64,000 bases of DNA from an uncultured Anaerolineaceae bacterium (GCA_964518505.1 CAZFGT010000003.1:26589-90588); one strand, 5' to 3'. Shown: positions 1 to 20,544, numbered from the stretch's first letter. Notes: generated by a model not told the origin, from the letters alone. Program-made: numbers and translations.

Positions 1-437
1 TGACGCCGGTGTGGCAGGCGCTGGGCGCCCATCCCGGCGCCATCGACTTGAGCGGTTTGGGCGTGGGCCTGCTGATCGCCGTCCTCGTCGTGCCGCCCAT
101 CCTGACCGTGCTGCTGGCCCTGCCGTTCTGGATGCTCTTCACGAAGCTGCGCTTCTGGCAGGCCCTCGTGATCGGCTTCCTCTGCTTCAACGCCCTGGTC
201 GGCGCGGCGGTCCTCATCTGGGCCGCCTTCAGCTTCGACGCGGTGATGGGCCTGCTCTGGTTCCTGGGCAAGACCTACGTCTTCGTCGTGATCTTCGTGT
301 GGATGCGCGCCACCCTGCCGCGCGTGCGCATCGACCAGCTGATGGGCTTCGCCTGGAAGTGGCTCCTGCCGGCCTCGCTGGCCAACCTGTTCGTGACCGC
401 CCTGGCCATCCTGATCATCGCCCAGGTGCGCGGATGA
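1..437 (+). CDS. nuoH: NADH-quinone oxidoreductase subunit H (C-terminal part; 5' end lies outside the window)
   Basis: ORF 9..437 carries the NuoH/ND1 C-terminal motifs ([19 protein letters not shown]) and several TM helices. Its TGA stop overlaps the next ATG (ATGA at 434-437). Confidence 0.88.
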
Positions 438-1267
438 GCTTCGTGCCCGGGCTGGGGATCCTCAAGGGGATGGCCCTCACCTTCCGCAACATGCTGCGCC
501 TCAAGCCCACGGTGCAGTACCCCGAGGAGGTGTACCCAGTCGCGCCGCGCCACCGCGGCCGCCTCCTGCTGCTCTATGACGAGGCCGGGGCGCTGAAATG
601 CGAGACCTGCTTCCAGTGCGCCCAGGCGTGCCCCATCGAGTGCATCGACATGGGCGGAGTGGACACGCGCGACCGCTACCACGTCCACTGGGGCCCCGCC
701 GAGCAGTACGGCGAACGCCGCGAGGAGTCGGCCCTGCGCCGCTCCGGCCGGCCGGTCCCCGATCCCACCGCGACGCCCTTCGAGCCCATCGACACGGCCG
801 CCCTCGACGCCATCCTGGCCGACGAGGGCTACGACCCGCGCCACATGTTGGCCATCCTGGGCCGCACCCAGGACGCCTACGGCCACCTGTCGGTCGCGGC
901 GCTCAAGCACATCAGCCATGCCACCGGCGCGTGGTACGCCGAGGTATACGGCACGGCCACCTTCTACGACCAGCTGCGCATGGCCCCGGCCGGCGGCCAT
1001 GTGCTGGCCATCTGCCGCTGCCCCAGCTGTACCTTCCGCGGCGCGGGCCGCGTGCTCGCTGCCGCGGAGGCGGCGGCCTCGACGACCCTCGGCGGCAGCA
1101 GCCCCGAGGGCGCCGTGCGGCTCGAAGCGGCGGCCTGCCACGGCGGCTCGCCGGGGGCCGCCTACGTGACGCTCGACGGCGCCGTCCAGGCCGAGCCGAC
1201 GGCCAGGGGCATCACCGATCTGCTGACCCGCCTGCGGGCCGGCCATGCGCCGGCGGGACGGGCCTGA
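434..1267 (+). CDS. NuoI-like (single [4Fe-4S] motif) fused to a NuoE-like thioredoxin-fold [2Fe-2S] domain
   Basis: The N-terminus aligns by eye to NuoI/Nqo9 ([33 protein letters not shown]). Only the first CxxCxxCxxxCP motif is present; the second is absent. The C-terminal half matches NuoE/Nqo2 ([29 protein letters not shown]). Start ATG 434 overlaps the nuoH stop; stop 1265-1267 lies 1 nt before the nuoF ATG. Confidence 0.75.
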
Positions 1268-1268
1268 G

Positions 1269-2597
1269 ATGACCGCCCCCATCCTGCGCCAGCCGGCCGG
1301 CTGGCCGTCGGTGCTCCTCGCCCGAGCCGCCAAGCTCGACGCCCGGGCCGATCTGGCCGAGGCGGAGAAGCTGGGCGCCTGGGCCGCCTGGAAGGCGGCC
1401 GTCCGACAGGGCCCGGAGGCGGTGGTGCGGGCCGTCAGCGACGCCGGCCTGCGGGGCCGTGGCGGGGCCGGCTATCCCACGGCCGACAAGTGGCGCGCCG
1501 TGCGTGCGCAGCCCGCCCTGGTCCGCTACGCCGTGGCCAACGGCTACGAGGCCGATCCGGGTGTCGTCGTCGACCGCACGCTGATGGAAGCTGACCCCCA
1601 CGCCGTGCTGGAGGGCCTGGCCCTCGCCGCCTTTGCCGTCGGCGCCCAGGAGGCCTTCCTCGTCGTGCGCGCCGACGCGAGTGCCGCCATCGAGCGGCTC
1701 ACGGCGGCGCTCGAGGCGGCCGTGGCGGCGGGCTACCTGGGCGACGACGTGCTCGGCAGCGGCGTGACCGTGGAGATCCAGATCCGGCCGCTGGAGGGCG
1801 GCTTCGTGCTCGGCGAGGAGACCGTCCTGCTGAAGGCGCTGGAGGGCAAGCGGGGCGTGCCGGAGCAGCGGCCGCCGTACCCCTCTGAGCGTGGCCTTTT
1901 CGGGGCCCCCACCGCGGTCAACAACGTGGCCACCCTGGCGAGCGTGCCCTGGCTGCTCATCAACGGGCCGGCCACGTTCCGGGCCATCGGCGATCCGGAC
2001 TACCCGGGCACCGTCCTCGTGCAGCTCAGTGGCGCCGTCCATCGGCCGGGCGTGGCCGAGGTGCCCACCGGCACGCCCCTCGCCGTGGTCATCGACAAGG
2101 CCGGCGGCGGCGCGACCGGGCAGCTCAAGGCGGCCCTCGTGGGTGGCCCCTCGGGCGGCTTCCTGCCCCCCGACGCCCTGGCCACGCCCCTCGCGCCCGA
2201 CGCGCTCGAAGCGGCGGGGGCGATCATGGGCTCGGGCTCCCTGCTCGTGCTCGACGAGCACGCCTGCATCGTCGAGCTGGCGACGCTCATGGAGCGCTTC
2301 ATGAACGACGAGTCGTGCGGCAAATGCATCCCCTGCCGCATCGGCACGCGCCGCCTCACGGAGATCGGCGAGCGCTTCATGAGCGGCCGTCCGCGGCCCA
2401 CCGACACGGGCCTCCTGCTGGACCTGGCGGCCGATGTCCGGGATGGCTCGCTGTGCGGCCACGGCATCACGGCCCCCAATCCGCTCACATCCGGGATGCG
2501 ATACTTCGGCCAGGAATTCGACGACCACATCGTGCGCGGCCGGTGCGCCGCCGGGGTGTGCAAGCCCCTGCGCGTCGCCGCCGGAGCCGCCCGATGA
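1269..2597 (+). CDS. nuoF: NADH-quinone oxidoreductase subunit F (51 kDa, FMN/NADH-binding)
   Basis: GLRGRGGAGYPT FMN/NADH-site motif and ESCGKCIPCRIG [4Fe-4S] (N3) motif. The ORF frame holds a conserved length of about 440 aa. Start chosen at MTAPIL (ATG 1269), immediately after the upstream stop. Confidence 0.9.
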   Translation: MTAPILRQPAGWPSVLLARAAKLDARADLAEAEKLGAWAAWKAAVRQGPEAVVRAVSDAGLRGRGGAGYPTADKWRAVRAQPALVRYAVANGYEADPGVVVDRTLMEADPHAVLEGLALAAFAVGAQEAFLVVRADASAAIERLTAALEAAVAAGYLGDDVLGSGVTVEIQIRPLEGGFVLGEETVLLKALEGKRGVPEQRPPYPSERGLFGAPTAVNNVATLASVPWLLINGPATFRAIGDPDYPGTVLVQLSGAVHRPGVAEVPTGTPLAVVIDKAGGGATGQLKAALVGGPSGGFLPPDALATPLAPDALEAAGAIMGSGSLLVLDEHACIVELATLMERFMNDESCGKCIPCRIGTRRLTEIGERFMSGRPRPTDTGLLLDLAADVRDGSLCGHGITAPNPLTSGMRYFGQEFDDHIVRGRCAAGVCKPLRVAAGAAR

Positions 2598-2631
2598 GCC
2601 CGTCCCTCGCCAGCCAAGGACCTGTCCGCGC

Positions 2632-5199
2632 ATGACCGACCTGCTGCCTGCGCCGACCGCCGCCCAGGACTCGCTCGCCGACCGCCTGCTCGAGACGCAG
2701 GCGCCGCAGCGCCCCCAGGTCAGCCCCGCCATCACCATCGAGGTGGACGGCCGGCAGATCACCGGTCGCGAGGGCCAGACGATCCTGGAGCTGTGCCGCG
2801 ACAACGGCATCGAGATCCCCACCCTCTGCTACGAGCCCAAGCTGCCGGGCTTCGGGGCCTGCCGCATGTGCGTCGTGGACCTGGCCGGGGAGGATCAGCC
2901 GCCCATCAGCTGCTCGCGCGCCGCCGAGGCGGGCATGGTCGTGCAGACACAGACCGCGCGGATCCGCCAGCTGCGCAAGACCAACCTGGAGCTGATCTTC
3001 AGCGACCACAACGCCTACTGCCTGCCGCCGTGCCAGAACAAGTGCCCCAGCCACATCGACATCCCGGGCTTCCTGAAGGCCAACACGGAAGGCAACTTCG
3101 TCGAGTCGGCGCGCATCTTCAAGCGCACCATCCCCTTCCCCAGCATCCTGGGGCGGGTCTGCCCCGCGCCGTGCGAGGAGCACTGCCGCCGCGACGAGGT
3201 GGACGAGGCGATCGCCATCCGCGACAGCCACCGCTACGCCGGCGACCAGGTCCTCAAGGCGCTGGGCCGGGGCCAGAAGGCGCCCGTGCCGTTCGAGGTG
3301 CAGGCACCGTCGGGCAAGCGGGTGGCGGTCATCGGCTCGGGCCCGGCGGGCGCCTCGGCCGCCTACTACCTGGCCATCGCCGGCCACGAGGTGACGATCT
3401 TCGAGCGTGACCCGGCGCCCGGCGGCATGCTGCGCTACGGCATCCCGCAGTACCGCCTGCCCAAGGACGAGGTGCTGGCCGGGGAGTACGAGAGCCTCAC
3501 CGACCTGGGCATCCGCATGGTCTGCGACCGCGCCCTGGGCCGCGACTTCACCGTCGACGACCTGCAGAACCAGGGCTTCGATGCGGTCTGCGTGGCCATC
3601 GGCTGCTACGACACGAACAAGCTCGGCGTGCCCGGCGAGGACGCCCCCGACGTGCTCGACGGCCTGGAGTACCTGCGCATCGCCACGCTCGGTCTGCCCT
3701 ACCCCGGCCACAAGGGCAAGCGGGTGGTCGTCATCGGCGGCGGTTTCACCTCCATGGACTGCACCCGCACGTCGCTGCGGCAGGGCGCCAGTGAGGTCAC
3801 GCTCGTCTACCGCCGCGACATGAAGGAGATGTCGGCCGCCAACGAGGTCCACGAGGCCATCGAGGAGGGCGCGCGGGCCATCTTCCAGGCGGCCCCCACG
3901 CGCGTCCTGTCCGACGCCAAGGGCAAGGTCACGGGGGTGGAGTTCATCCGCATGCGGCTCGGCGCCCCGGACGAGAAGGGCCGCCGCCGACCGGAGCCGG
4001 TCGAGGGCACCGAGTTCACCATCCCCTGCGACCGCGTCCTGCTGGCCATCGGCCAGGGCCCCGACCTCACCTGGCTCGACCACGGCTCCGACGGCCTGGC
4101 CGCCTCCAAGCAGCGACGCCTGCAGGCCGACGCCGTCACCTTCGCCACCGGGCGGGCCGGCGTCTTCGCCACGGGCGACGTGCGCGTCGGCGCCACCACG
4201 GTCGTCCAGGCCGTGGGCGAGGGCCGCCGCTCGGCGTACGCCATCGATGCGTACCTCAAGGGCCACGACCTGGAGGCGATCCGGACGCGCCAGACGCTGG
4301 CCGAGCCGCAGCCCGAGTTCCTCTCCATCGTGCCCTACACCGACGAGCGCAAGGAACCGCGCCTGCGGCTGAAGTCGATGGCGCCCGAGGTGCGCAAGCA
4401 GAGCTACATCGAATACGAGATCCCTTACACGCAGCAGGAGGCGATGAGCGAGTCGGGGCGCTGCCTGCAGTGCACCTGCGAAGCGATCGGCTTCTGCGAT
4501 CTGCGCCGTCAGGGCATCGAGTACGGCACGACGCTGCCGACCCTGGAGCCGGCGCGGACGGGCCTGTCCTTCCGCTCGGTGACCGAGAACCGCTTCACCG
4601 GTCACAACCACGACTACATCCGCGACGACAGCCACGCCTTCATCCTGCGGGAGCCGTCGCGCTGCATCGACTGCGGCCGCTGCGCCAACGTGTGCAAGGA
4701 GGTCGTGGGGGCGGCCTGCTACGACTTCATGCGTACGGGCTTCGACACGCTCGTCACGACGCCCCTCGACATGAGCCTCAACACGACCCCCTGCGTGAGT
4801 TGCGGGCGGTGCGCCGAGACGTGCCCGACGGGCGCGCTGATGCCCAAGCCGCGGGTGCTGGAGCGCTACGACGTCGACGAGAGCCGCTGCATCCTGTGTG
4901 GCATCTGTGTCGATGCGTGCCCCTATGACGCGCTGCGCTGCGGGCCCGACTTCGAGCTCTCCCACGAGAGCCGGGCCGAGCCCCTGATCGACCTGCTGGC
5001 CATCAGCGCCATCGAGCACACCAGCGAGGTCACCTACATCCAGCGCGAACGCGACTGGCTGACGCGGGCCCAGGCGGCGGGCCGGTCGGTCGACGCCGGG
5101 CGCCTCCTGCCGGTCCTGCCGGCCAGCGTGCGCGGCAACGGCCACGGTAACGGGCTGGGCAACGGCCACGGCGACGGCCACGCGTCCGACGCCTCCTAG
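2632..5199 (+). CDS. NuoG-position subunit: NuoG-type [2Fe-2S] N-domain + GltD-like FAD/NAD(P)H flavoprotein + 2x[4Fe-4S] ferredoxin; lacks the molybdopterin-like domain
   Basis: The N-terminus (ITIEVDGRQI..LCYEPKL..GACRMCVV) matches the NuoG/Nqo3 ferredoxin domain. The middle matches the glutamate synthase small subunit (CLPPCQNKCP, GRVCPAPCEEHC, KRVAVIGSGPAG, KRVVVIGGGFTSMDC, GRRRPEP). The C-terminus has CIDCGRCANVC, CVSCGRCAETCP and CILCGICVDACP motifs and a His/Gly tail (GNGHGNGLGNGHGDGH). Start ATG 2632 is the first in-frame ATG after the nuoF stop at 2597. Confidence 0.8.
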   Translation: MTDLLPAPTAAQDSLADRLLETQAPQRPQVSPAITIEVDGRQITGREGQTILELCRDNGIEIPTLCYEPKLPGFGACRMCVVDLAGEDQPPISCSRAAEAGMVVQTQTARIRQLRKTNLELIFSDHNAYCLPPCQNKCPSHIDIPGFLKANTEGNFVESARIFKRTIPFPSILGRVCPAPCEEHCRRDEVDEAIAIRDSHRYAGDQVLKALGRGQKAPVPFEVQAPSGKRVAVIGSGPAGASAAYYLAIAGHEVTIFERDPAPGGMLRYGIPQYRLPKDEVLAGEYESLTDLGIRMVCDRALGRDFTVDDLQNQGFDAVCVAIGCYDTNKLGVPGEDAPDVLDGLEYLRIATLGLPYPGHKGKRVVVIGGGFTSMDCTRTSLRQGASEVTLVYRRDMKEMSAANEVHEAIEEGARAIFQAAPTRVLSDAKGKVTGVEFIRMRLGAPDEKGRRRPEPVEGTEFTIPCDRVLLAIGQGPDLTWLDHGSDGLAASKQRRLQADAVTFATGRAGVFATGDVRVGATTVVQAVGEGRRSAYAIDAYLKGHDLEAIRTRQTLAEPQPEFLSIVPYTDERKEPRLRLKSMAPEVRKQSYIEYEIPYTQQEAMSESGRCLQCTCEAIGFCDLRRQGIEYGTTLPTLEPARTGLSFRSVTENRFTGHNHDYIRDDSHAFILREPSRCIDCGRCANVCKEVVGAACYDFMRTGFDTLVTTPLDMSLNTTPCVSCGRCAETCPTGALMPKPRVLERYDVDESRCILCGICVDACPYDALRCGPDFELSHESRAEPLIDLLAISAIEHTSEVTYIQRERDWLTRAQAAGRSVDAGRLLPVLPASVRGNGHGNGLGNGHGDGHASDAS

Positions 5200-5205
5200 G
5201 TCGCC

Positions 5206-5760
5206 ATGCTGAGCATCCCCTCCACGATCCCGCTGCTCGGCTGGACCTGGAACGACCTGCTGTTCCTGATCCTGGCCGGCGGCCTCCTGGGCTCGGCCCT
5301 CATGGTCGTCCTGGGGCGGGACATCATCCGCTGCGGCCTGTGGATGATCGTCTGCTTCCTGTTCCTGGCCGGCCTCTACGTGCTGCTGGGCAATCCGCTC
5401 GTGGCCGGCGCGCAGGTGCTGGTCTACATCGGCGCCATCAGCGTGCTGATCCTCTTCGCCGTCATGCTCACCCAGTCCAAGGCCGGCCCGGCGCGCCTGG
5501 TCTTCCACCACCAGGCGTGGGCCGCCGCCCTGGCCGCGATCGGCCTGGCCGTGGTGCTGGTGATCGTCGACGGGGCCACCAGCTGGCCGCTGGCCCAGCC
5601 GGACCGCACCGCGACGGCGACCACCGACGTCGCCTCGAAGCTCTTCAGTGACTTTGTGCTGCCGTTCGAGGTGGTCAGCGTGCTCCTGCTGGCGGCCGTC
5701 ATCGGCGGCGTCTTCCTGGCCAAGAAAGATGACGCGCCTCGCTCCGACAGCGACATATGA
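5206..5760 (+). CDS. nuoJ: NADH-quinone oxidoreductase subunit J
   Basis: 184-aa polytopic protein with a NuoJ/ND6-like profile (…[16 protein letters not shown]…), positioned before nuoK with an ATGA overlap. Confidence 0.8.
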
Positions 5761-6068
5761 GCCAGAACCTCGACGCCTACCTCGTCCTCTCGGCGCTCCT
5801 CTTCTGTATCGGCGTCTTCGGCTTCCTGGCCCGGCGCAACGCGATCTCCATGCTCATGTGCATCGAGCTGATGCTCAACGCGGTGAACCTGGCCATCCTG
5901 GCCTTCGGCGCGTTCGTGCCGTCGCTGCACGGCAACGCCGCGGTCATCGCCCTCATCGTCATGGCCGTGGCGGCCGGCGAGGCGACCGTGGGCCTGGCCA
6001 TCGTCATCGCCATCTACCGCAACCGGCGCACGCCGCTGGTCGATGAGTACGCCCAGATGCGTGACTGA
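5757..6068 (+). CDS. nuoK: NADH-quinone oxidoreductase subunit K
   Basis: 103 aa with three TM helices and conserved NuoK/ND4L motifs ([12 protein letters not shown]…ELMLNAVNL…EATVGLAIV). Confidence 0.9.
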
Positions 6069-6071
6069 GCG

Positions 6072-8036
6072 GTGACCCAGCTGACGGTCCTGCTCCTGCT
6101 CCTGCCGGTGGCCGGCTTCGCCATCACGGCACTCGTCGGGCGACGCCTTGGGGCGAGCTCGTGGGTGCCTGCCGTGGCGGCCATCGTGGCCACCTGGGCC
6201 GTGGCCATGGTCGTCGTCTACGGCCAGCTGAGCGGCGGCAACGGCGACACGGGCCTGCAGGTCACGCTCTACCGCTGGATCCCGGCCGGCGCCTTCACCA
6301 TCGACTTCAACCTGGCGGTGGACAACCTGACCGCGGCGCTGCTCATCGTGGTCACCACGGTAGGCATGCTGGTCCACGTCTACTCGATCGGCTACATGGC
6401 CCACGACCCGGGCCGGTGGCGCTTCTTCGCCTACCTCAACTTCTTCATGTTCAGCATGCTGCTGCTGGTCCTGGCGGGCAACTTCCTGCTGCTGTTCGCG
6501 GCGTGGGAGCTGGTCGGCCTGTCGAGCTACCTGCTCATCGGCTTCTGGTACCGGCGGCACAGCGCGGCCCTGGCAGCCAAGAAGGCCTTCCTGGTCAACC
6601 GCGTCGGCGACGTCGGCTTCGCCCTCGGCATCATGGCCGTCTGGTCGACCGTGGGGACGCTCAACTTCACCGATGTGTTCAACCTCCTGCCGGCCAAGCT
6701 GGCCAGCGGCGCCATCCAGCCCTGGGAGATGACCGGCATCGCCCTGCTGCTCTTCTGCGGGGCGGTCGGCAAGAGCGCCCAGTTCCCCCTCCACGTCTGG
6801 CTGCCCGACGCGATGGAGGGCCCCACGCCCGTGAGCGCCCTGATCCATGCGGCGACCATGGTCAACGCCGGCGTCTACTTCGTGGCCCGGGCCAACCCCA
6901 TCTTCAGCCAGAGCGGGTCGGCCATGGTCATCGTCGCCGCGATCGGCATCTTCACGGCCCTGCTGGCCGCCTCGATCGCCCTGACCCAGACCGACATCAA
7001 GCGCGTCCTGGCCTACTCCACGCTGAGCCAGCTGGGCTACATGTTCGCGGCCCTCGGCGTGGGCGCCTACGTGGCCGCCATCTTCCATCTCATGGCCCAC
7101 GGCTTCTTCAAGGGCCTGCTGTTCCTCGATTCGGGCTCGGTCATCCACGGCGTGCACGACGAGCAGGACATGAACCGCATGGGCGGCCTGTGGCGGAAGC
7201 TGCCGGTGACCCACGCCACGATGCTCGTGGGCACCCTGGCCATCGCCGGCATCCCGCCGCTGGCAGGCTTCTTCAGCAAGGATGAGATCCTGGGCCAGAG
7301 CTTCAAGGCCGGCTTCCTGTGGGTCTGGATCGTGGGCATCGGGGTGGCCGGCCTGACCGCCTTCTACATGTTCCGGCTCATGGGCAAGACGTTCTACGGG
7401 CCCAGCCACGTCGACCCGGCCGTGGAACCGCAGGTCCACGAGTCGCCGCGCTCGATGACGGTGCCGCTCGTCCTGCTGGCCATCCCGTCGGCCCTGCTCG
7501 GCCTGGGTCTGGGCCTGCCGTTCGGCGCCGGCGCGATCTCCAGCTGGCTCGATCCGGTCTTCGCCCACGCGGAGCAGACCCTGGGCCGCAGCCCCGAGTC
7601 GTTCAGCCTCTTCGGCCTCGACGGCGCCCTGATCCTCATCAGCGTCACCGTGGCGGCCGTGGGCACGATCGCCGGCATGCGGCTGTTCGGCTTCCACTGG
7701 CCGTTCACGGCGCGCGAGACGGCGCCTCTGCCCGATCGGGTGGCGGCCATCACCGCCCGCCTGCGGCCGCTCTACACGGCGTCGTTCCACAAGTGGTGGT
7801 TCGACGACCTCAACGACCTGATCTTCGTGCGCTTCGGCAGCCGCCTGGCCAACGGGGCGTGGTGGTTCGACCGCACGGTCGTCGACGGCACCGTCAACGG
7901 CACCGGGCGCTTCATCCAGCGCACCGGTCGCGAGGTGCGCCAGATCCAGACCGGCCACGTCCAGAACTACGCCCTGGGCATCGCCCTCGGCCTGCTCGTG
8001 GTGGCCGGCGGCTACCTGCTCCTGGCGGGCCGCTGA
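6072..8036 (+). CDS. nuoL: NADH-quinone oxidoreductase subunit L
   Basis: 654-aa antiporter-like subunit (WEL/GLSSYLLIGFW, long C-terminal extension). GTG start 4 nt after the nuoK stop. Confidence 0.9.
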   Translation: MTQLTVLLLLLPVAGFAITALVGRRLGASSWVPAVAAIVATWAVAMVVVYGQLSGGNGDTGLQVTLYRWIPAGAFTIDFNLAVDNLTAALLIVVTTVGMLVHVYSIGYMAHDPGRWRFFAYLNFFMFSMLLLVLAGNFLLLFAAWELVGLSSYLLIGFWYRRHSAALAAKKAFLVNRVGDVGFALGIMAVWSTVGTLNFTDVFNLLPAKLASGAIQPWEMTGIALLLFCGAVGKSAQFPLHVWLPDAMEGPTPVSALIHAATMVNAGVYFVARANPIFSQSGSAMVIVAAIGIFTALLAASIALTQTDIKRVLAYSTLSQLGYMFAALGVGAYVAAIFHLMAHGFFKGLLFLDSGSVIHGVHDEQDMNRMGGLWRKLPVTHATMLVGTLAIAGIPPLAGFFSKDEILGQSFKAGFLWVWIVGIGVAGLTAFYMFRLMGKTFYGPSHVDPAVEPQVHESPRSMTVPLVLLAIPSALLGLGLGLPFGAGAISSWLDPVFAHAEQTLGRSPESFSLFGLDGALILISVTVAAVGTIAGMRLFGFHWPFTARETAPLPDRVAAITARLRPLYTASFHKWWFDDLNDLIFVRFGSRLANGAWWFDRTVVDGTVNGTGRFIQRTGREVRQIQTGHVQNYALGIALGLLVVAGGYLLLAGR

Positions 8037-9574
8037 TGGCCGGCCTGCCCCTCCTCGCGCTGGTCGTCTTCAGCCCGCTCGTCGGCGCGCTGCTCATCGC
8101 CTTCATGCCGCGCGACCGCGTGGTGCTCATCCGCCGGCTGGCCCTGGCCACGGCCCTTGTCAGCTTCGGCTTCTCGCTGCTCCTGCTGATCGGCTTCAAC
8201 GGCGCCGCGTCGGATGCCGGGGGCTTCCGCTTCGTCGAGACGGCGACGTGGGTACCCGCCTTCGGCATCCAGTTCAAGCTGGGCGTGGACGGCATCAGCC
8301 TGCTGCTGGTGGTGCTCACCACGCTGCTCACGTGGATCAGCATCCTGGCCAGCTTCGGCCCCATCCGGGAGCGGGTGAAGGAGTACATGATCTCCTTCCT
8401 CATCCTCGAGGTGGGCATGCTGGGCGTCTTCCTGGCGCTCGACCTCTTCCTCTTCTACGTCTTCTGGGAAGTGGTCCTCGTGCCGATGTACCTCATCATC
8501 GGCATCTGGGGCGGGCCCAACCGCATCTACGCCACGATCAAGTTCGTCCTCTACACGCTGGTCGGCTCGCTGCTCATGCTGGTGGCCATCCTGGCCACCG
8601 CGTTCGCCTTCGCCTCCGCCCACGGCGGCGACTTCACGGGCGCCTTCGACTACGAGCAGCTGCGCGGCTTCCCCTTCACCGACGTGCTCCAGACCGGCGC
8701 CTTCCTGGCCTTCTTCCTGGCCTTCGCCATCAAGGTGCCGATGGTGCCCTTCCACACATGGCTGCCCGACGCGCACGTGGAGGCGCCCACCGCCGGCTCG
8801 GTGATCCTGGCCGGCGTCCTGCTCAAGCTCGGCGCCTATGGCTTCATCCGCTTCTCGCTGCCCCTCTTCCCGCACGCGGCGCAGTCGTTCGCGGTGCCCA
8901 TCGTGGTGCTGTCGCTGATCGCCATCATCTATGGCGCGATCGTGGCCCTGGTCCAGACCGACCTGAAGAAGCTCATCGCTTACTCGTCGGTGAGCCACAT
9001 GGGCTTCGTGACCCTGGGCATCTTCATCTTCCAGCAGCAGGGCCTCCAGGGCGCGGTGCTCCAGATGGTCAACCACGGGCTCATCACGGGCGCCCTCTTC
9101 CTGCTGGTCGGCGTCATCTACGAGCGCGGCCATGACCGCACCATCGCGCGGATGGGTGGCCTGGCCGGTGCGACACCGGTGTACGCCGTGGCCTTCGGCT
9201 TCTTCATGCTGGCCAGCGTCGGCCTGCCCGGCCTGGCCGGCTTCGTGGGTGAGTTCCTGGTCTTCCAGGGCTCGTTCGTGGCCTGGCCCCTGTACGCGGC
9301 CATCGCCGTGCTGGTCATGACGCTGGGGGCGGCCTACCTGCTGTGGCTGTACCAGCGGATGTTCACCGGCGAGCTGTCCGACTTCTTCCGCGGCCTGGGC
9401 GACCACCTGACCGACCTGAGCCCGGTGGAGGTCATGACGCTCGTGCCCCTGGGCACGCTGGTGCTCCTGCTGGGCCTCTTCCCGGGGCTCGCCCTTGGCG
9501 TCATCCAGGGACCCACGGACAGCGTCCTCAACGCCGTCCATGGCACCGTGACCGCCCTGGCGGGCACCCCGTGA
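8036..9574 (+). CDS. nuoM: NADH-quinone oxidoreductase subunit M
   Basis: 512-aa NuoM/ND4-like antiporter subunit (FFLAFAIKVPMVPFHTWLPDAHVEAPT). ATG overlaps the nuoL TGA. Confidence 0.9.
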   Translation: MAGLPLLALVVFSPLVGALLIAFMPRDRVVLIRRLALATALVSFGFSLLLLIGFNGAASDAGGFRFVETATWVPAFGIQFKLGVDGISLLLVVLTTLLTWISILASFGPIRERVKEYMISFLILEVGMLGVFLALDLFLFYVFWEVVLVPMYLIIGIWGGPNRIYATIKFVLYTLVGSLLMLVAILATAFAFASAHGGDFTGAFDYEQLRGFPFTDVLQTGAFLAFFLAFAIKVPMVPFHTWLPDAHVEAPTAGSVILAGVLLKLGAYGFIRFSLPLFPHAAQSFAVPIVVLSLIAIIYGAIVALVQTDLKKLIAYSSVSHMGFVTLGIFIFQQQGLQGAVLQMVNHGLITGALFLLVGVIYERGHDRTIARMGGLAGATPVYAVAFGFFMLASVGLPGLAGFVGEFLVFQGSFVAWPLYAAIAVLVMTLGAAYLLWLYQRMFTGELSDFFRGLGDHLTDLSPVEVMTLVPLGTLVLLLGLFPGLALGVIQGPTDSVLNAVHGTVTALAGTP

Positions 9575-11058
9575 CCGGGCCCGAGCTGGCGGCCATCGCG
9601 CCGTTCGGCTACGTCGTCGCGCTGGCGGTGCTGGTCATCCTGGCCGACATCGTGCGGCCCGGCGACGAGCGCGTGACGATCGTCATCGGGACGGTGGGGA
9701 CCCTCGTGGGACTCGTCCTCGTGGTGGCCGTCGGGCTCGGCGGGACGGTGCAGCCCGTCTTCGGCGGCGCCTACCAGCTGGATCCGCTGACGACGTTCCT
9801 GGACATGCTCTTCCTGGCCATCGCGTTCCTGACCATCCTCTTCTCGCCCGACTACCTGCGGCCGCGTCACTACCCCCTGCCCGAGTACGTGGCGACCCTC
9901 CTGTTCGCCATCAGCGGCGCCATGCTCATCTCCGCCGCCCGTGACCTGTTGGTCCTGTTCCTTGGCCTGGAGCTCCTGGTACTGCCCGGCTACATGCTCG
10001 TGGCCTACGCCAAGCGGGACGGCCTGGCCACCGAGGGCGCCATCAAGTACTTCCTGCTCGGCTCGTTCTCCTCGGCCATCTTCCTCTTCGGCCTGGCCTT
10101 CACCTGGGGCTACACCGGCACGACGAGCGTGGCCGGCGTGGCGTCACACCTCCAGCAGGTGGTGACCAGCGGGCAGGTGCCGGCCGCCGGGTTGCTGATG
10201 GGCCTCGCGCTGATGACCACCGGGGTGGCCTTCAAGATCGCCGCGGTGCCCTTCCACTACTGGACACCGGATGCGTACCAGGGCTCGCCCACGCCGGTCA
10301 CCGGCTACCTCTCGGTGGGGCCCAAGATCGCCGCCTTCGCCCTCATCCTGCGCCTCTTCGCCGAGGCCCTGGCCCCCATGCGCGCCGACTGGGTCGGCGT
10401 GGTCGTGGTGCTGGCCGCCCTGACCATGACGCTGGGCAACCTGGTGGCCCTGACGCAGGACAACATCAAGCGGATGCTGGCCTACTCGTCGATCGCCCAC
10501 ACCGGCTACATCCTCGTCGGCCTGGCCGCCTTCGCCGGTGCGCCGGCGGGTTCCAGCGCGGCCTCGGCCGGCATCGCCGGCGTGCTCTTCTACAGCGCCG
10601 CCTACACCTTCATGAACCTGGGCGCGTTCGCCGTGGTGGCCGCCCTCCAGGGCCGGCCCGGCGTGACCAGCCAGATCGCCACGTTCGCCGGCCTGGGGCG
10701 CCGCGCCCCGCTGGCCGGCGCGCTGATGCTGCTGTTCCTGCTGTCGCTGACGGGGATCCCGCCCACAGCTGGCTTCTTCGCCAAGGCGTACGTCATCGAG
10801 GCCGCCCTGCAGTCGGGCGGGCTGGTGCCCTGGCTGGCCGTGATCGCCGTCGTCAACGCGGCGATGGCCGCCTTCTACTACCTGCGCGTGGTGGTGGTGA
10901 TGTACATGCAGGAGCCGGCGGCCGACGCCCAGCCGGTCACCGACAGCCGACCGATGCGCCTGGGCCTCCTCATCGCGGCCGTGGCCACAGTGCTCATCGG
11001 CGTGGTCCCCGGCCTGCTCATCCCGATGGCCCAGGCCGCCGCCGCGGCCATCCAGTAG
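9571..11058 (+). CDS. nuoN: NADH-quinone oxidoreductase subunit N
   Basis: 495-aa NuoN/ND2-like subunit (AAVPFHYWTPDAYQGSPTPVT). GTG start overlaps the nuoM stop (GTGA). Confidence 0.9.
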   Translation: MTGPELAAIAPFGYVVALAVLVILADIVRPGDERVTIVIGTVGTLVGLVLVVAVGLGGTVQPVFGGAYQLDPLTTFLDMLFLAIAFLTILFSPDYLRPRHYPLPEYVATLLFAISGAMLISAARDLLVLFLGLELLVLPGYMLVAYAKRDGLATEGAIKYFLLGSFSSAIFLFGLAFTWGYTGTTSVAGVASHLQQVVTSGQVPAAGLLMGLALMTTGVAFKIAAVPFHYWTPDAYQGSPTPVTGYLSVGPKIAAFALILRLFAEALAPMRADWVGVVVVLAALTMTLGNLVALTQDNIKRMLAYSSIAHTGYILVGLAAFAGAPAGSSAASAGIAGVLFYSAAYTFMNLGAFAVVAALQGRPGVTSQIATFAGLGRRAPLAGALMLLFLLSLTGIPPTAGFFAKAYVIEAALQSGGLVPWLAVIAVVNAAMAAFYYLRVVVVMYMQEPAADAQPVTDSRPMRLGLLIAAVATVLIGVVPGLLIPMAQAAAAAIQ

Positions 11059-11905
11059 GCCAGGTCGCCAGCCGCCACAGCAGGCGCGCCGCCTCGGCAG
11101 GGCTGGCGAGGACGGCGTCGGCGGCGGCCATGATCTCGGGCACCTGGTCGGCCCGCCCGTGGACCCCCACAGCAAGGGTCCGCAAACGGCCGCTGTCCCG
11201 GGCGGCATCCAGCACGCGGAAGGCGGCCGCGTCACTGACGTCATCGCCAAGCATCACGGCGAAGCCCGGGCGCACCTCGTCGAGCAGCGTGGCCACCGCC
11301 TGCGCCTTGGTCGTGGCGCCCGGCGGACGCAGCTCCAGCATGCGCATGCCAAGCTGCCGCTCGAAGCGGCCTTCGGGGTCCAGGCGGTCGACGGCGGCCC
11401 GGACGCGGACGGCGGCCGCGGCGAGGTCCGGCGCGCCGCGGAAGTGGAGGGCCAGGGCCGGCGGCTTGCGCTCCACGACCAGCCACGCCTCCGGCAGGAG
11501 CCGTGGGACGCCCATCGCGAGGCCTTCGGCACCCTCGTCGTAGGCCTCGAACCCCGGCCGCCGCACGGTCTGCAGGCGGCGGGAGGCGGCACCACGCGCG
11601 AGGCGGCCGCGCTCCATCCCGTGGTTGCCCAGGTAATCCGCCCCACCGACGCGCACGCGACCGGCCAGGTCTGCGGAGGCGCGCCCGGACAGCAGGACGA
11701 CGGTCGTGGCCGGCCGCGCCACCAGGCGACGCAGCGCCCGTTGCGCCAGCGGCACGATGGTGGCGCCCCACGGATCCATCTGCAGGGGACTCAGCGTGCC
11801 GTCGAAATCGGAGACGACCAGCCAGGGCGTGGCATGGAGGGCGTCCCCGGCGAGCTCGAGCGCGCCATCGACGGAGAGCCGGCGCCCCTCGACGCCGTCG
11901 CTCAC
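11018..11905 (-). CDS. otsB: HAD-superfamily phosphatase, trehalose-6-phosphate phosphatase-like
   Basis: DFDGTLSP motif I, LLSGR, YLGNHGME and GDDVSD motifs typical of OtsB-type HAD phosphatases. Its 3' end overlaps the nuoN 3' end by about 40 nt (convergent). Confidence 0.55.
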   Translation of the reverse strand: MSDGVEGRRLSVDGALELAGDALHATPWLVVSDFDGTLSPLQMDPWGATIVPLAQRALRRLVARPATTVVLLSGRASADLAGRVRVGGADYLGNHGMERGRLARGAASRRLQTVRRPGFEAYDEGAEGLAMGVPRLLPEAWLVVERKPPALALHFRGAPDLAAAAVRVRAAVDRLDPEGRFERQLGMRMLELRPPGATTKAQAVATLLDEVRPGFAVMLGDDVSDAAAFRVLDAARDSGRLRTLAVGVHGRADQVPEIMAAADAVLASPAEAARLLWRLATWPTGWPRRRPGPSG

Positions 11906-12600
11906 GGGGCGAAGCTGGCGGCGCCCGGCAGGATCGACTTGAGCCCGGTGGCGAAGCCGGGGATGGTCCCCTCGCCGAAGAGGACGTAGCGGATGACACC
12001 GCCCTTGTCGATGAAGTAGTGCATCGGCAGCACCAGCGCGTTGAAGGTCTGCTGCGCCGTGCCGTCGGCGTCGATGCCCATGGTGGCCACGAAGCCGGTC
12101 TGGGCCACGAGCGAGGCGGCCGTGGCGGCGTCCTCGCGCACGTCCACGGCGACGATCTGCAGCTGGCTGCCGTACTGGGCCGCCGCCGCATCCATCAGCG
12201 ACATCTCATCGCGGCAGCTGGGGCACCAGCTCGCCGTGAAGGCCAGCCAGACCGGTTTGCCGCGCAGACTCGCGAGGTCGACGGTGCCCCCGCCGACCCG
12301 TGCCACCGTGAGCCCGGGCGCCTGCTGGCCCACCTTGAGGCCGACCGCGATGGTGGGCGTCGGCGCCGTGGTCGGGCCGTTGGAGGAGGGCGTCGGGCCG
12401 CCGCCAGCCGGGGTCGCCGTAGCGCTCGGCGTCGCCGAGGGGCTGGCGTTCACCGACGGGCTCGGCGACGGGGAAGCGAGGGCCAGCGACGCGGGCGGCG
12501 GCTCGAGCTTGGTGGAGCCCAGGTTCATGGCGATGGCGCCGAGCACCAGGGCTCCCACGACGAGGCCCGCGATCAGGCCCACCAGGGTGGGGATACGCAT
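11902..12600 (-). CDS. Membrane-anchored TlpA/ResA-like thiol-disulfide oxidoreductase (thioredoxin fold)
   Basis: N-terminal TM helix, Pro/Ser/Thr/Ala-rich linker, and a WCPSC active site within a thioredoxin-like domain. Confidence 0.7.
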   Translation of the reverse strand: MRIPTLVGLIAGLVVGALVLGAIAMNLGSTKLEPPPASLALASPSPSPSVNASPSATPSATATPAGGGPTPSSNGPTTAPTPTIAVGLKVGQQAPGLTVARVGGGTVDLASLRGKPVWLAFTASWCPSCRDEMSLMDAAAAQYGSQLQIVAVDVREDAATAASLVAQTGFVATMGIDADGTAQQTFNALVLPMHYFIDKGGVIRYVLFGEGTIPGFATGLKSILPGAASFAP

Positions 12601-15427: not shown

Positions 15428-15760
15428 ATGGCCAGCCCGGCCCGCATCCGCGCCACGATCGCCTCCGTCACCACGGCTCCCGACGAGCTGCGCGAACTGC
15501 GCGCGTTCCACAAGGCCCTCGCCGACGTCAACCGCCTGCGGCTGGTCCGCCGCCTGGCCGACGGGCCGGCGACCGTGGCCGAGCTGACCGAGCATGTCGG
15601 CCTGTCGCAGCCCCTGGTCAGCTGGCACCTCGGCCGCCTCCGCGCCGCCGGGCTCGTGGCCATGCGTCGCAGCGGCCGGGAGACGGTGTGTAGCCTCGAA
15701 CCCGCGGCGCTCCTGGCCGCCGAGCAGCGCGAGCGCGCGTGGCTGGGCCTGGCGGGATGA
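15428..15760 (+). CDS. ArsR/SmtB-family transcriptional regulator
   Basis: Winged-HTH signature LADVNRLRLVRRLADGPATVAELTEHVGLSQPLVSWHL. It is divergent from the MFS pump, and its stop overlaps the next ATG (ATGA). Confidence 0.85.
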   Translation: MASPARIRATIASVTTAPDELRELRAFHKALADVNRLRLVRRLADGPATVAELTEHVGLSQPLVSWHLGRLRAAGLVAMRRSGRETVCSLEPAALLAAEQRERAWLGLAG

Positions 15761-16392
15761 ACCTCAAGGAGGGCTCGCTGCTGTCGGTCGCCGCGCGCGA
15801 TCGCTTCCGCCACCGCGTGGAGCCGTACGCCGCCAACCTCGCCCGGGTCGGCCTGACGCCCAACGCGCTGACGCTGATCGGCTTCGGCATCTCCGTCGCG
15901 GCGGCCGCCCTGGGCGGCCTGCAGCTGTGGCTGGCCTGCGGGCTGGTGGCCACGTTCGGGGCCGCCTTCGACATGTTCGACGGCGCCGTGGCCCGCGCCA
16001 CCGGCACGGCCAGCCCGTTCGGCGCGTTCATGGACAGCACCTTCGACCGCTGGGGCGAGGGCATCGTCTACGCCGGCATCGCCACCGGGGCGGCCCTGGC
16101 GGGCCAGTCGGTGACCGTCCTGCTGGCGGCGCTGGCGATGGGCGCCGCCTTCATGGTCAGCTACAGCCGGGCCAAGGCGGAGAGCCTTGGCTGGCATGGC
16201 GAGACGGGCATCGCCCCGCGCCCCGAGCGCGTCGTGCTCCTGGGCCTGGGCCTCGTGGCGGCTGGCCTGGGGGGTGGACCGGCCGGCGGCCCGTGGCTCC
16301 AGCTGGCCCTTGCCGCCATCGCCGTCCTCGGCACCGTCACGGTCATCCAACGCATCGTCTACGTCCAGCATCAGGCAGAAGGGACCAGGTAG
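15757..16392 (+). CDS. CDP-alcohol phosphatidyltransferase (phosphatidylinositol-phosphate synthase-like, PgsA1 type)
   Basis: D-x2-DG-x2-AR…G-x3-D-x3-D motif (FDMFDGAVARATG…FMDSTFDRWGE) and multiple TM helices. Confidence 0.85.
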   Translation: MNLKEGSLLSVAARDRFRHRVEPYAANLARVGLTPNALTLIGFGISVAAAALGGLQLWLACGLVATFGAAFDMFDGAVARATGTASPFGAFMDSTFDRWGEGIVYAGIATGAALAGQSVTVLLAALAMGAAFMVSYSRAKAESLGWHGETGIAPRPERVVLLGLGLVAAGLGGGPAGGPWLQLALAAIAVLGTVTVIQRIVYVQHQAEGTR

Positions 16393-16398
16393 GAGCAC

Positions 16399-17631
16399 AT
16401 GGAGCAGCACGTGAGCAAGAACGGGCAGGAGAAGGAAGCGCCGGCGAAGGGCAGCGGCAAGCGCGGCGACGGCAAGATCCGCGTCGCCATCGTGGGCGTC
16501 GGCAACTGTGCCAGCAGCCTGGTGCAGGGCCGCTACTACTACGAGAACGCCAAGGACGACGAGTTCGTGCCGGGCCTCATGCACGTCAACCTGGGCGGGT
16601 ACCACATCCGCGACATCGAGTTCGTGGCCGCCTTCGACATCGACAAGAACAAGGTCGGCAAGGACCTGTCCGAGGCGATCTACACCAAGCCCAACAACAC
16701 CTACGTCTTCAAGCAGGTCCCCCACATCGGGGTCAAGGTCGAGCGCGGGATGACCCACGACGGCCTGGGCAAGTACCTCAGCCAGATCATCGAGAAGGCG
16801 CCCGGCCCGACGGCCGATGTGGTGGGCATCCTCAAGTCGCGCAAGGTCGACGTCGTCGTCTCCTACCTGCCGGTCGGCTCGGAGGAGGCCACCAAGTGGT
16901 ACGTCGAGCAGGCCCTGGCGGCCGGCGTCGGCTTCGTCAACGCCATCCCCGTCTTCATCGGCCGCGAGCCGTACTGGCAGCGCCGCTTCGCCGAGAAGGG
17001 CCTGCCGGTCATCGGCGACGACATCAAGAGCCAGGTCGGGGCCACCATCACGCACCGCGTCCTGACCCGCCTCTTCATGGATCGCGGCGTGCGCCTGGAC
17101 CGCACGTACCAGCTCAACTTCGGCGGCAACACCGACTTCCTGAACATGCTCGAGCGCGAGCGCCTGGAGTCCAAGAAGATCAGCAAGACCAACGCCGTCA
17201 CGTCGATGCTCGACTACGACATCGACCCCGACGACATCCATGTCGGCCCGTCCGACCACGTGCCGTGGCTGCTCGACCGTAAGTGGTGCTACATCCGCAT
17301 GGAGGGCACGACCTACGGCGACGTGCCCCTCAACGCCGAGCTCAAGCTCGAGGTCTGGGACAGCCCCAACAGCGCCGGCGTCATCACCGACGCGGTCCGC
17401 TGCCTGAAGCTGGGCCTGGATCGCGGCCTGAAGGGCACGCTCGTGGCGCCGTCCTCGTACTTCATGAAGAGCCCGCCGATCCAGATCCACGACGACATCG
17501 CCTTCGAGCGGGTCGAGGCCTTCATCCGGGGCGAGGACAACGAGACCCTGGTGGGCACCGAGGCAGCCCCGGCGCGTCGCATGCGCCGGATGGCCCCGGC
17601 GCGCGCCAAGGCGAGCGTGGCGGCACGCTGA
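16399..17631 (+). CDS. ino1: myo-inositol-1-phosphate synthase
   Basis: Conserved MIPS motifs ([39 protein letters not shown]). 410 aa. Confidence 0.9.
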
Positions 17632-17735
17632 AGCGCCGCACGCCCGGATCGGGAGCCGCACCCCCAGCGCCTCCCGCGCCGGTGGCCTCCACGACCGTAC
17701 CCGCGCCGCATCGCCCGCCCGCCCGCGGCGGACGG

Positions 17736-19711: not shown

Positions 19712-20544
19712 GCGCCGTCGATCCCGCCGACGTGACGCGCCCCGGGCGGGCCGACCTGCACATCCACACCGCGGCCTCGGACGGCACGGCGCCCGTGACC
19801 GACGTCCTCGAGCGCGTGGCGGCGCGGGGCGACCTGGACGTCATCGCCATCGCCGATCACGACCGCCTGGATGCCGCACTCGCGGCGCAGGCCATGGCCC
19901 GCAGCCGGGCGTACCCCTTCCAGGTGGTCGTGGGCGAGGAGGTCAGTACTCGCGGGGGGCACCTGCTCGGGCTATTCCTGACCAGCCGCGTCCGGCCCTG
20001 GCGCTCGATGCGGGCCACGATCGCTGAGGTCCATGCCCAGGGGGGCCTGGCGGTGCCTGCCCATCCGTTCATCCCCTACCCGCTGTGCGTCAGCCGCCGC
20101 ACGCTGCTGCGACTGCTGGCCGACCCCGACCCGAACGTGCATCCGGACGCCCTCGAGGTCTTCAACCCGACCACCATCGGCCGCCGCTGGCACCCCCAGG
20201 TGGTGGCCTTCGCCGCCCAGCACGGACTGCCGGGCATCGGCGACAGCGACGCCCACGAGCTGGACCAGATCGGCCAGGGCTGGACCGGCTTCCCGGGCCG
20301 CACCGCGGATGACCTGCGCCAAGCCATCCTGGCCGGCACGACGACCTGGCACGGCGACTTCTACCCGCGGTTCGCCCAGGTGGGCATGGTCGGCCGCCAG
20401 TACCGCAAGAAGGCCCTGGACCTCTCGGCCGACCTGGGCGGCCGCCTGCTGCGGCGAGGCACTGGCCGCGACCTGGGCTACCCGGGCGGACGCGAGCGGC
20501 CTGCTCGCTACGGAGCGGACACCGAGGAGGCCGGCCGGCCGTGA
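19708..20544 (+). CDS. PHP-domain metal-dependent phosphoesterase
   Basis: DLHIHTAASDG, IAIADHD and His-rich PHP signatures. ATGA overlap with the upstream gene; GTGA overlap with the downstream GT4. Confidence 0.75.
   Translation: MSAVDPADVTRPGRADLHIHTAASDGTAPVTDVLERVAARGDLDVIAIADHDRLDAALAAQAMARSRAYPFQVVVGEEVSTRGGHLLGLFLTSRVRPWRSMRATIAEVHAQGGLAVPAHPFIPYPLCVSRRTLLRLLADPDPNVHPDALEVFNPTTIGRRWHPQVVAFAAQHGLPGIGDSDAHELDQIGQGWTGFPGRTADDLRQAILAGTTTWHGDFYPRFAQVGMVGRQYRKKALDLSADLGGRLLRRGTGRDLGYPGGRERPARYGADTEEAGRP

Follow-up and report, generated by a model that had tools for sequence, protein, structure and literature searches.

A stretch of 64,000 nucleotides (nt) from an uncultured Anaerolineaceae bacterium (GCA_964518505.1 CAZFGT010000003.1:26589-90588; hereafter the window, with a G+C content of 72%) opens inside a nuo operon and raises the question of what stands in for NuoG when the open reading frame (ORF) behind the nuoF-like gene encodes, for the most part, a flavoprotein. 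This ORF (positions 2632-5199, plus strand) specifies a protein of 855 amino acids (aa), here called X, and a protein identical to it (P0001) has already been called in public assemblies. The first-pass annotation of the DNA took X for a NuoG in its usual slot whose body had been exchanged for that of a glutamate synthase small subunit (GltD). The comparisons described below point elsewhere. X, the NuoF-like protein (F) and the NuoE-like domain (E) encoded upstream of it resemble the subunits of NfnABC/Stn transhydrogenases, and they lie within nuoI, the halves of which are fused to the two outer proteins (I'::E and X::'I).

Composition of X and the divided nuoI gene

The trio and the domains of X are arranged as follows, with the supporting matches in brackets; an AAGGA sequence is located ~10 nt 5' of the ATG of X.

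434..724, +, N-terminal half of NuoI with ferredoxin motif 1, aa 1-97 of the I'::E fusion (TIGR01971 positions 1-66 of 121)
767..1267, +, NuoE/NfnC-like thioredoxin-like [2Fe-2S] domain on the same polypeptide as the NuoI N-terminal half (Pfam 2Fe-2S_thioredx, E 1.5e-21)
1269..2597, +, F, a NuoF-like subunit for flavin mononucleotide (FMN) and reduced nicotinamide adenine dinucleotide (NADH), equal to the NfnB/BfuB core without its N- and C-terminal iron-sulphur (Fe-S) domains (Pfam Complex1_51K, SLBB, NADH_4Fe-4S)
2632..5199, +, X, 855 aa, predicted Y-junction flavoprotein of the NfnA/StnC type with the NuoI C-terminal half joined to it (Pfam, NCBIfam, comparison with solved structures, AlphaFold2 (AF2)/Foldseek)
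2728..2961, +, X aa 33-110, [2Fe-2S] domain, cluster A1, equivalent to N1b (Fer2_4, E 4.9e-19)
2962..4266, +, X aa 111-545, GltD/NfnL-like domain with two [4Fe-4S] sites (A6, A7), flavin adenine dinucleotide (FAD) and a Rossmann fold for reduced nicotinamide adenine dinucleotide phosphate (NADPH) (Fer4_20, Pyr_redox_2)
4267..4611, +, X aa 546-660, linker and CxxCxCx5C motif (C611, C614, C616, C622; cluster A3) (alignment with NfnA-like proteins)
4612..4851, +, X aa 661-740, HydA/NuoG-type 2x[4Fe-4S] ferredoxin-like domain (CIDCGRCANVC and CVSCGRCAETCP; A2, A4) (9bov_A alignment, TIGR02512)
4852..5061, +, X aa 741-810, C-terminal half of NuoI with ferredoxin motif 2 (CILCGICVDACP) and a DFEL...R...L tail (TIGR01971)
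5062..5196, +, X aa 811-855, poorly conserved tail with His/Gly-rich low complexity at its end (GNGHGNGLGNGHGDGH)

X aligns end to end, over aa 34-762, with residues 4-698 of the 1178-residue NfnA of Caldicellulosiruptor (Csac; 9bov_A, E 7e-158), and it also matches NfnA of Thermococcus (9n5u_A) and StnC of Sporomusa (8oh5_C), the three chains spanning E values from 1e-141 to 1e-158. An AF2 model of X was built from a 52-sequence alignment and is confident for the [2Fe-2S] and GltD domains; Foldseek, queried with this model, ranks these three chains first. All three are the A subunits of Bfu-type NfnABC/Stn transhydrogenases. F is closer to NfnB (9bov_B, residues 117-526 of 584, E 1.7e-114) than to the best true NuoF (8e9g_F, E 1.4e-85), and the closest solved structures of the NuoE-like domain are NfnC (9bov_C), StnA (8oh5_A) and 9n5u_C. 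Because X, F and the E part find their best matches in NfnA, NfnB and NfnC, respectively, the trio is, by homology, an nfnC-nfnB-nfnA-like cassette and not a modified nuoEFG.

The likeness to NfnABC/StnABC (9bov, 8oh5, 9n5u) includes the number of subunits and the gene order C-B-A. X has in common with NfnA/StnC the N-terminal [2Fe-2S] domain, the inserted GltD/NfnL FAD-NADPH domain with A6/A7, cluster A3, clusters A2/A4 and all Cys ligands. In NfnA/StnC these are followed by a ~470-aa NuoG/formate dehydrogenase (Fdh)-like domain with cluster A5, whereas X carries half of NuoI at this place. The alignments thus describe X as the first ~700 residues of an NfnA/StnC with the Fdh-like domain exchanged for the C-terminal half of NuoI. 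In Stn, the Fdh-like A5 domain is needed for stability (PMC10482914).

Much of the domain content read from the DNA in the first-pass annotation is recovered by these searches. Pfam places Fer2_4 on aa 33-108 of X, with invariant Cys ligands, and the GltD-type FAD/NAD(P)H flavoprotein with its two [4Fe-4S] sites is represented by Fer4_20 (aa 130-208), Pyr_redox_2 (aa 230-531), invariant Cys residues and two solved matches, 4ylf_B (E 5e-81) and 5jca_L. Fer4_7 (aa 721-767) and Fer4 (aa 747-769) follow. The molybdopterin-like domain is indeed missing, with no match to it in X by Pfam or NCBIfam, and the NfnA alignment ends at about residue 700 of 1178. The His/Gly-rich tail is likewise present in the translation.

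Several existing family names were considered for X and set aside. A true GltD is contradicted by scores below the curated cut-offs (TIGR01317/TIGR01318, 320 against 483 and 230 against 448 bits, the 320 bits being those of gltD_gamma_fam) and by the lack of a gltB partner, none being found among the genes of the operon, either in the window or in a 98% identical locus with more upstream sequence (L001). The NuoG model TIGR01973 yields 88.3 bits where the cut-off demands 470 and covers X aa 36-216 on profile positions 1-170 only, which, with the missing molybdopterin-like domain, speaks against a true NuoG; Fer4_Nqo3 is weak on aa 671-736 (24.3 bits, cut-off 27), and TIGR02512 matches aa 671-745. 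PRK12814 (NF009454), described by NCBIfam as a 'putative NADPH-dependent glutamate synthase small subunit' of 2Fe-2S plus GltD architecture, reaches 556.7 bits against a cut-off of 916 (E 7e-167) and extends over aa 33-691 only, so that X is not a member. The label formate dehydrogenase, used by the Joint Genome Institute (JGI), does not suit a protein without a molybdopterin domain.

The ORF at 434-1267 encodes the N-terminal half of NuoI followed by the NuoE/NfnC-like domain in one polypeptide. The NuoI part aligns to residues 5-91 of NuoI from M. smegmatis (8e9g_I) and 28-85 of NuoI from E. coli (7awt_I). The C-terminal piece of X (aa 741 to about 800-810) falls on TIGR01971 positions 71-113 of 121 and aligns to 8e9g_I 92-130, 7awt_I 92-129 and 8qby_I 93-138. 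The two pieces are complementary and do not overlap; together they account for residues 5-130 of 8e9g_I and for profile positions 1-66 and 71-113. The full NuoI sequence is therefore present, but it is distributed over two chains and not found as one polypeptide of ~160-180 aa with two CxxCxxCxxxCP motifs. No other nuoI or nuoG was found in the operon of L001. Because the NuoI pieces are complementary and the operon has no second nuoI, it follows that a three-gene NfnABC/Stn-related cassette is inserted within nuoI and splits it in two. The second ferredoxin motif of NuoI has thus moved to the C-terminus of X, as had been suspected at the outset, and the placement of a rebuilt NuoG in the NuoG slot is abandoned in favour of an NfnCBA-derived trio that lies inside nuoI and not between nuoD and nuoH.

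X had also been described as ending in a 2x[4Fe-4S] domain. Both motifs, CVSCGRCAETCP and CILCGICVDACP, are present as stated, but they do not form one self-contained domain. The partner of CVSCGRCAETCP is CIDCGRCANVC, with which it makes up a HydA/NfnA-type dicluster (A2/A4), and CILCGICVDACP is NuoI motif 2, whose partner, motif 1, is located on I'::E; as each has its own partner, the four motifs correspond to two dicluster domains. NuoI motif 2 (C753/756/759/763) aligns on the CxxCxxxC A5 motif that opens NfnA's Fdh-like domain, and only 22 residues separate it from the last A4 Cys. The CxxCxxCxxxCP motif of the NuoI N-terminal half is invariant in 63 Limnocylindria sequences and also occurs in a second lineage described below. 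An assembly or frameshift artefact was dismissed, since separate projects yielded 60+ metagenome-assembled genomes (MAGs) with the identical split, which also recurs in the second lineage.

The operon, as seen in L001, has the order nuoA-B-C-D-H-[I'::E]-[F]-[X::'I]-J-K-L-M-N. The E-F-X block is located between nuoH and nuoJ and not at the canonical place of E-F-G between nuoD and nuoH. The remaining nuo genes of the window are:

3..437, +, 3' end of nuoH (the window starts inside the gene), continuing the 460-aa NADHdh (PF00146) protein of L001
5206..5760, +, nuoJ (Pfam Oxidored_q3, E 1.2e-33)
5757..6068, +, nuoK (Pfam Oxidored_q2)
6072..8036, +, nuoL (Pfam Proton_antipo_N, Proton_antipo_M)
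8036..9574, +, nuoM (Pfam Proton_antipo_M; start by analogy with L001)
9571..11058, +, nuoN (Pfam Proton_antipo_M; start by analogy with L001)

From L001 and the window together, the core complex I genes A, B, C, D, H, J, K, L, M and N are all present, and in L001 the N2 ligands of NuoB (CC...C...GCPP) and the quinone-site motifs of NuoD (HPSTHGVLR and YLHRGVEK) are intact. The stop codon of nuoH overlaps the ATG of I'::E as ATGA, F stops at 2597, nuoJ starts 6 nt past the stop of X, and the gene junctions overlap or measure 0-35 nt. Neither promoter-like nor terminator-like sites were detected in window positions 1-12000. An unrelated insertion with a promoter and terminators of its own was rejected on these grounds. 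NuoH has 460 aa in L001 (6462-7844) as compared with 371 aa in a locus of the second lineage (L002), the extra part including a hydrophobic stretch before the conserved C-terminal helix. The added length may adapt NuoH to the new peripheral module.

Distribution and cofactor sites

The GTDB was scanned at one genome per species with the C-terminal region of X as query. Confirmed relatives of this region were found in at least 579 species genomes (at least 599 matched stretches), and taxonomy and flanks were taken from the best 80 of these at least 579 loci. By sequence, all of the best 80 are from Limnocylindria MAGs, a few of which carry other bin labels, and one is a complete chromosome of 2.43 Mb. 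Identity to X is 80% or more throughout its 120 best homologues, which originate from MAGs of Candidatus Limnocylindrales/Chloroflexota and from soil metagenomes and, two partial sequences excepted, measure 847-916 aa. Homologues are annotated only as 'FAD-dependent oxidoreductase' or 'formate dehydrogenase major subunit'. A near-identical operon is seen in MAGs labelled Sulfotelmatobacter, Dormiibacterota, Anaerolineae or Anaerolineaceae (L007, L008, L025, L029), which probably represent Limnocylindria contigs that were mis-binned or loosely classified.

A search of representatives at 50% identity revealed one distant protein, P0136, which is 42% identical to X and has the same C-terminus. 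The proteins most closely related to P0136 are metagenomic and 808-880 aa long, and the few with a source name carry the label Thermoleophilia or Actinobacteria. The Thermoleophilia-labelled loci (JGI metagenomes) have the same operon order, and the order H-I'E-F-X-J is found in every locus with enough flank as well as in this second lineage. A recurrence of the architecture in the nuo operons of other genomes, proposed as a check in the first-pass annotation, is thus observed in Limnocylindria and in the Thermoleophilia-labelled lineage. A neighbour-joining tree, computed from 676 shared columns with the NuoI part excluded and including 45 NfnA-like representatives, joins the X proteins of both lineages in a single clade apart from these representatives in 200 of 200 bootstraps. 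The X::'I fusion therefore arose once and is now present in both lineages. The arrangement occurs in hundreds of uncultured genomes and is not described in the open-access literature and bioRxiv searched.

Among the NfnA-like proteins, P0137, P0159, P0170, P0176, P0195 and P0208 (~810-850 aa) end in '...NN[IV]DHCARL'. The gene calls were probably cut at a UGA selenocysteine codon within the catalytic domain of a genuine Fdh, in which case these homologues would be selenocysteine-containing formate dehydrogenases with an inserted GltD/NADPH domain.

The cofactor ligands were compared in an alignment of seven X sequences from the two Nuo-linked lineages with six long NfnA-like proteins. The ligands of A1 (C66, C77, C80, C94), A6/A7 (C130/134/138 and C177/181/185), A3 (C611/614/616/622) and A2/A4 (C678/681/684/688 and C721/724/727/731) are invariant in both groups. 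Position 200 of X is His in 7/7 Nuo-linked sequences, and is invariant in the 52-sequence alignment, in contrast to Lys in 6/6 NfnA-like proteins, where Lys is the fourth ligand of A7 (K170 in Csac NfnA and Stn; PMC11829005, PMC10482914). An extra Cys696 in X is specific to both Nuo-linked lineages, and a 17-aa insert within aa 546-660 is specific to Limnocylindria. The FAD motif GxGxxG and Y393-R394-R395 (YRR) of the NADPH fold are conserved. We read YRR as the putative 2'-phosphate site of a GltD/NfnL-type domain, and with the conserved FAD site it makes NADPH use by X plausible. Among 117 Limnocylindria homologues, the A2/A4 domain is the most conserved segment (99%), and aa 831-855 are conserved at 48%. 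The low complexity at aa ~831-850 (window 5122-5181) is rich in His, Gly and Asn; it varies in length in Limnocylindria, measuring ~45 residues in P0054, and the His/Gly tail is absent from the Thermoleophilia-labelled lineage.

The bifurcation-related parts of BfuB differ between the two lineages. F is without the N-terminal (B5) and C-terminal (B3/B4, ferredoxin site) BfuB domains in 61/61 Limnocylindria. The Bfu signature residues near the FMN are D195, A201, M203 and F281 in Tsi NfnB, in which Glu286 has been linked to selectivity for NADH over NADPH (PMC12018979). The corresponding segment of the window's F is NGYEADPGVVVDR, with D195 replaced by Tyr and A201 and M203 by Val, and F281 kept; the PGAFMDR motif is degraded in Limnocylindria F. 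The B subunit of L002 is a full-length BfuB of 638 aa (7t2r_B residues 7-594, E 1e-231) with the N-terminal [2Fe-2S] domain, PGAFMDR (NGDEGDPGAFMDR) and the C-terminal 2x[4Fe-4S] domain. This BfuB (8088-10004 in L002) has GEST for GEET and is therefore without Glu286.

Proposed electron path and alternative readings

In the soluble NfnABC/Stn enzymes, published structures define the electron path FAD-A7-A6-A3-A2-A1-B1-FMN (PMC11829005, PMC12018979). A2 acts as a Y-junction, and the side branch A2-A4-A5 is unused in Csac NfnA, where it has been called an evolutionary remnant (PMC11829005, PMC12018979). The same branch is unused in Stn, with its clusters named C1 and C2 and ascribed a stabilising role (PMC10482914). 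For the enzyme of the window we regard it as fairly probable that X is the hub subunit of a variant complex I, a non-bifurcating, proton-pumping NAD(P)H:quinone oxidoreductase with two inputs that is likely to reduce menaquinone. The non-bifurcating dual input is favoured because F has lost the ferredoxin site and the bifurcation signatures in Limnocylindria. NADPH would reduce the FAD of the GltD-like domain and deliver electrons through A7, A6 and A3 to the junction A2, which would receive those of NADH from the FMN of F by way of B1 (N3) and A1. From A2, electrons would continue to A4, the dead end of soluble NfnA, then to the NuoI clusters, N2 and menaquinone, driving the NuoL/M/N proton pumps. 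For this, the NuoI halves are expected to reassemble into the 2x[4Fe-4S] fold (N6a/N6b) on NuoB/D/H, and the reassembled NuoI would tie the module to the Q-module by both ends. Both NADPH and NADH are therefore probable electron donors of the enzyme.

A number of observations weigh against this dual-input complex I. In canonical complex I, NuoI is fed from the branch of the His-ligated N5, the equivalent of A3; here that branch is occupied in X by the GltD domain, and the proposed exit is by the A4 branch on the Mo side, through an unprecedented docking. The wiring of FAD to FMN should permit futile transhydrogenation from NADPH to NAD+. The predicted local distance difference test (pLDDT) score falls below 35 over X aa 614-855 in the AF2 model, which makes its Fe-S-rich C-terminus unusable for judging the A4/NuoI geometry, and a chimeric NuoI assembled from the two halves reached a pLDDT of 36 in single-sequence AF2. 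Furthermore, the E and F parts are far less conserved than X, with a median identity to the window protein of 58% for F and 62% for I'E (52-62% among the neighbours) as compared with 81% for X, the highest of the block. D195 at the FMN site is Phe, Tyr or Val in 61/61 Limnocylindria F sequences; Thr takes the place of the second N3/B1 Cys in 50/61; and the NuoE-like Cys pattern, CxxxxC...CxxxC in the second lineage, is CRCxxC...C in Limnocylindria, with the fourth Cys lost. Given these non-canonical ligands, the NADH site may be altered or weak.

The same features, together with a variable Glu in the NNVET motif of F, would suit a complex I that is fed by NADPH only, with the GltD-like FAD site as the real input, a weak or lost NADH site, and E and F persisting mostly as structural remnants by which the NuoI N-terminal half is tethered. 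We consider this unlikely, since the Gly-rich FMN loop GRGGAG, GEET with Glu286, GGPxGG and Phe281 are conserved in Limnocylindria F, and the lost NuoE Cys is offset by a new invariant Cys (CRCxxC). In addition, CGKC..PC is kept in 9/61 F sequences, which constitute the window's clade with all four N3 Cys, and the coupling of Cys to Thr with LCGLG to LCGLE resembles ligand replacement more than decay, the Glu near the fourth Cys being a possible substitute ligand. Complex I is reversible in general, and the enzyme might run mainly in reverse or as a redox balancer, either using proton-motive force and menaquinol to form NADPH (and NADH) for biosynthesis, through reverse electron transport, in what we take to be trace-gas-oxidising oligotrophs, or serving as a membrane-attached NADPH/NADH transhydrogenase. 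Stn/NfnABC are themselves reversible and also display plain NADPH:NAD+ oxidoreductase activity (PMC10482914), and FAD and FMN are, by homology, wired through A2 (PMC11829005). However, the sequence bears no sign of directionality, and no CO2-fixation or hydrogenase genes adjoin the operon within the window, so that this role is judged quite unlikely.

The descent of the module from a bifurcating family, the full-length BfuB of the Thermoleophilia-labelled lineage and the quinone-linked Nuo-Bfu predicted by Schut et al. (PMC9304861) would agree with a bifurcating or confurcating Nuo-Nfn-Bfu complex that couples ferredoxin, NADPH and NADH to quinone reduction. In the window lineage the B3/B4 and B5 domains and D195/A201/M203 are lost or changed and the ligands of the C1 cluster are altered, which renders such coupling very improbable there; it may be more plausible for the Thermoleophilia-labelled version. 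The Nfn-like module envisaged in the first-pass annotation is retained as to its kinship with NfnA/StnC, and its confurcation in the window lineage is thought unlikely, in view of an F without the ferredoxin domain, the N-terminal domain and D195/A201/M203. A NuoG whose body was swapped for GltD, with the C-terminus of X acting as a self-contained 2x[4Fe-4S] ferredoxin in the role of NuoI and the upstream NuoI fragment as a leftover, could be argued from Fer4_7, which takes aa 721-767 as one dicluster unit, and from the position of the X gene after nuoF. It is hard to reconcile with the pairing of CVSCGRCAETCP with CIDCGRCANVC as in NfnA/HydA, with the invariant motif in the NuoI N-terminal half of the 63 Limnocylindria sequences and the second lineage, and with E and F proteins that are NfnC/NfnB-like and not NuoE/NuoF-like, and we give it very little credence. 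Soluble homologues exist for all three proteins, and a soluble NfnABC-like enzyme merely encoded inside the nuo operon, without joining complex I, might be imagined. Both ends of the cassette are nevertheless translationally fused to halves of an essential complex I subunit, the operon has no intact nuoI, and every locus with sufficient flanking sequence, as well as the second lineage, retains the arrangement; a free-standing enzyme is in our estimation scarcely credible.

Related systems and neighbouring genes

The dual-input complex I proposed here shares with the canonical 14-subunit enzyme the genes of the membrane arm and the Q-module, with intact N2 and quinone-site motifs, an FMN/NADH subunit, a thioredoxin-like [2Fe-2S] subunit, a Y-junction Fe-S subunit and a complete NuoI sequence. 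It differs in gene order (canonical A-B-C-D-E-F-G-H-I-J...N, here A-B-C-D-H-[I'E]-F-[X'I]-J...N), in the split of NuoI, which is one chain in the canonical complex, in the absence of the molybdopterin-like domain and in an extra predicted FAD/NADPH site. Unlike the soluble NfnABC, the module is encoded inside the nuo operon and is presumed to be membrane-tethered, and ferredoxin, which NfnABC uses, is probably not a substrate, as judged from F. Other complexes combine an 11-subunit core with a lineage-specific input: FpoF for F420H2, the cyanobacterial NDH-1 with NdhS and ferredoxin, and NuoX/Y of Campylobacter/Helicobacter with flavodoxin. To our knowledge, none of these uses an Nfn-type module or NADPH via GltD, or is spliced into a core gene.

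Two further systems are closer. In Nuo-Bfu of Geobacter, Deferribacteres, Planctomycetes and Nitrospirae, BfuABC is encoded in the middle of the nuo operon and was proposed to substitute for NuoEFG as the quinone input (Schut et al. 2022, PMC9304861). As described in the text of that article, it is a 14-subunit A-N complex with BfuABC for NuoEFG, there is no mention of NuoI and no description of a GltD/NADPH domain, and it is reported from phyla other than those found here (BfuB clades 38 and 39) (PMC9304861). The Mbx-like operons of Thermotoga and some proteobacteria (Degli Esposti 2015, PMC4758237) resemble the present operon in having a GltD-type NAD(P)H flavoprotein in the position of NuoI. 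There the flavoprotein replaces NuoI in an Mrp/Mbx-type ferredoxin-oxidising complex thought to reduce NADP+, and, in contrast to the window, a NuoE/F-like pair, a Y-junction protein and a split NuoI are lacking (PMC4758237). We tentatively put forward a further-reaching view, about which we remain doubtful, namely that a complete NfnABC spliced into nuoI constitutes a third, independent wiring of flavoprotein input to complex I, in which the 'useless' A2-A4 branch has become the main exit to quinone. The Thermoleophilia-labelled version would then be a proton-pumping ferredoxin/NADH/NADPH bifurcating or confurcating machine, and the Limnocylindria version would be pared down to a proton-pumping dehydrogenase of NADPH (plus NADH).

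The evolution of complex I is explained by modular recruitment, and the E-F-X module would represent a clear, datable second recruitment of an N-module, with an Nfn-Bfu transhydrogenase as the donor. The insertion of genes within a gene divides a ferredoxin fold between two polypeptides, and the operon is a natural example on which the old question of proton pumping by a complex I with NADPH can be put to the test. It would also provide a function for the A2-A4 branch that the NfnABC and Stn structure papers regard as a dead end or evolutionary remnant. Neither nuoG nor nuoI would be assigned to any gene of the operon, and automated reconstructions probably score complex I as incomplete in Limnocylindria and the Thermoleophilia-labelled lineage. 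The lineages that carry X are abundant in soil. If the proposed function is correct and this is their sole complex I, NADPH would be an energy-conserving respiratory substrate in a large part of the soil microbiome.

Several other regions of the window were recorded. Positions 15694-21725 contain a cluster that is like those for actinobacterial phosphatidylinositol-mannoside synthesis, here in a Chloroflexota genome from soil, with a CDP-alcohol phosphatidyltransferase, a myo-inositol-1-phosphate synthase, two acyltransferases of the Lip_A_acyltrans family and a GT4 glycosyltransferase. The gene at 21722-23251 (minus strand) combines a CAP (cysteine-rich secretory protein) domain with three CWB2 cell-wall-binding repeats and probably encodes a secreted protein. 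An ORF of ~1700 aa at 23366-28462 (minus strand) matches protein O-mannosyltransferase (PMT, PMT_4TMC) over aa ~1016-1463, with no Pfam match elsewhere in the protein. At 33834-38218 (minus strand), recF, dnaN and dnaA are found, followed downstream by genes for MgtC and YidC; the origin of the chromosome probably lies in this region, at a distance of ~25-30 kb from the nuo operon.

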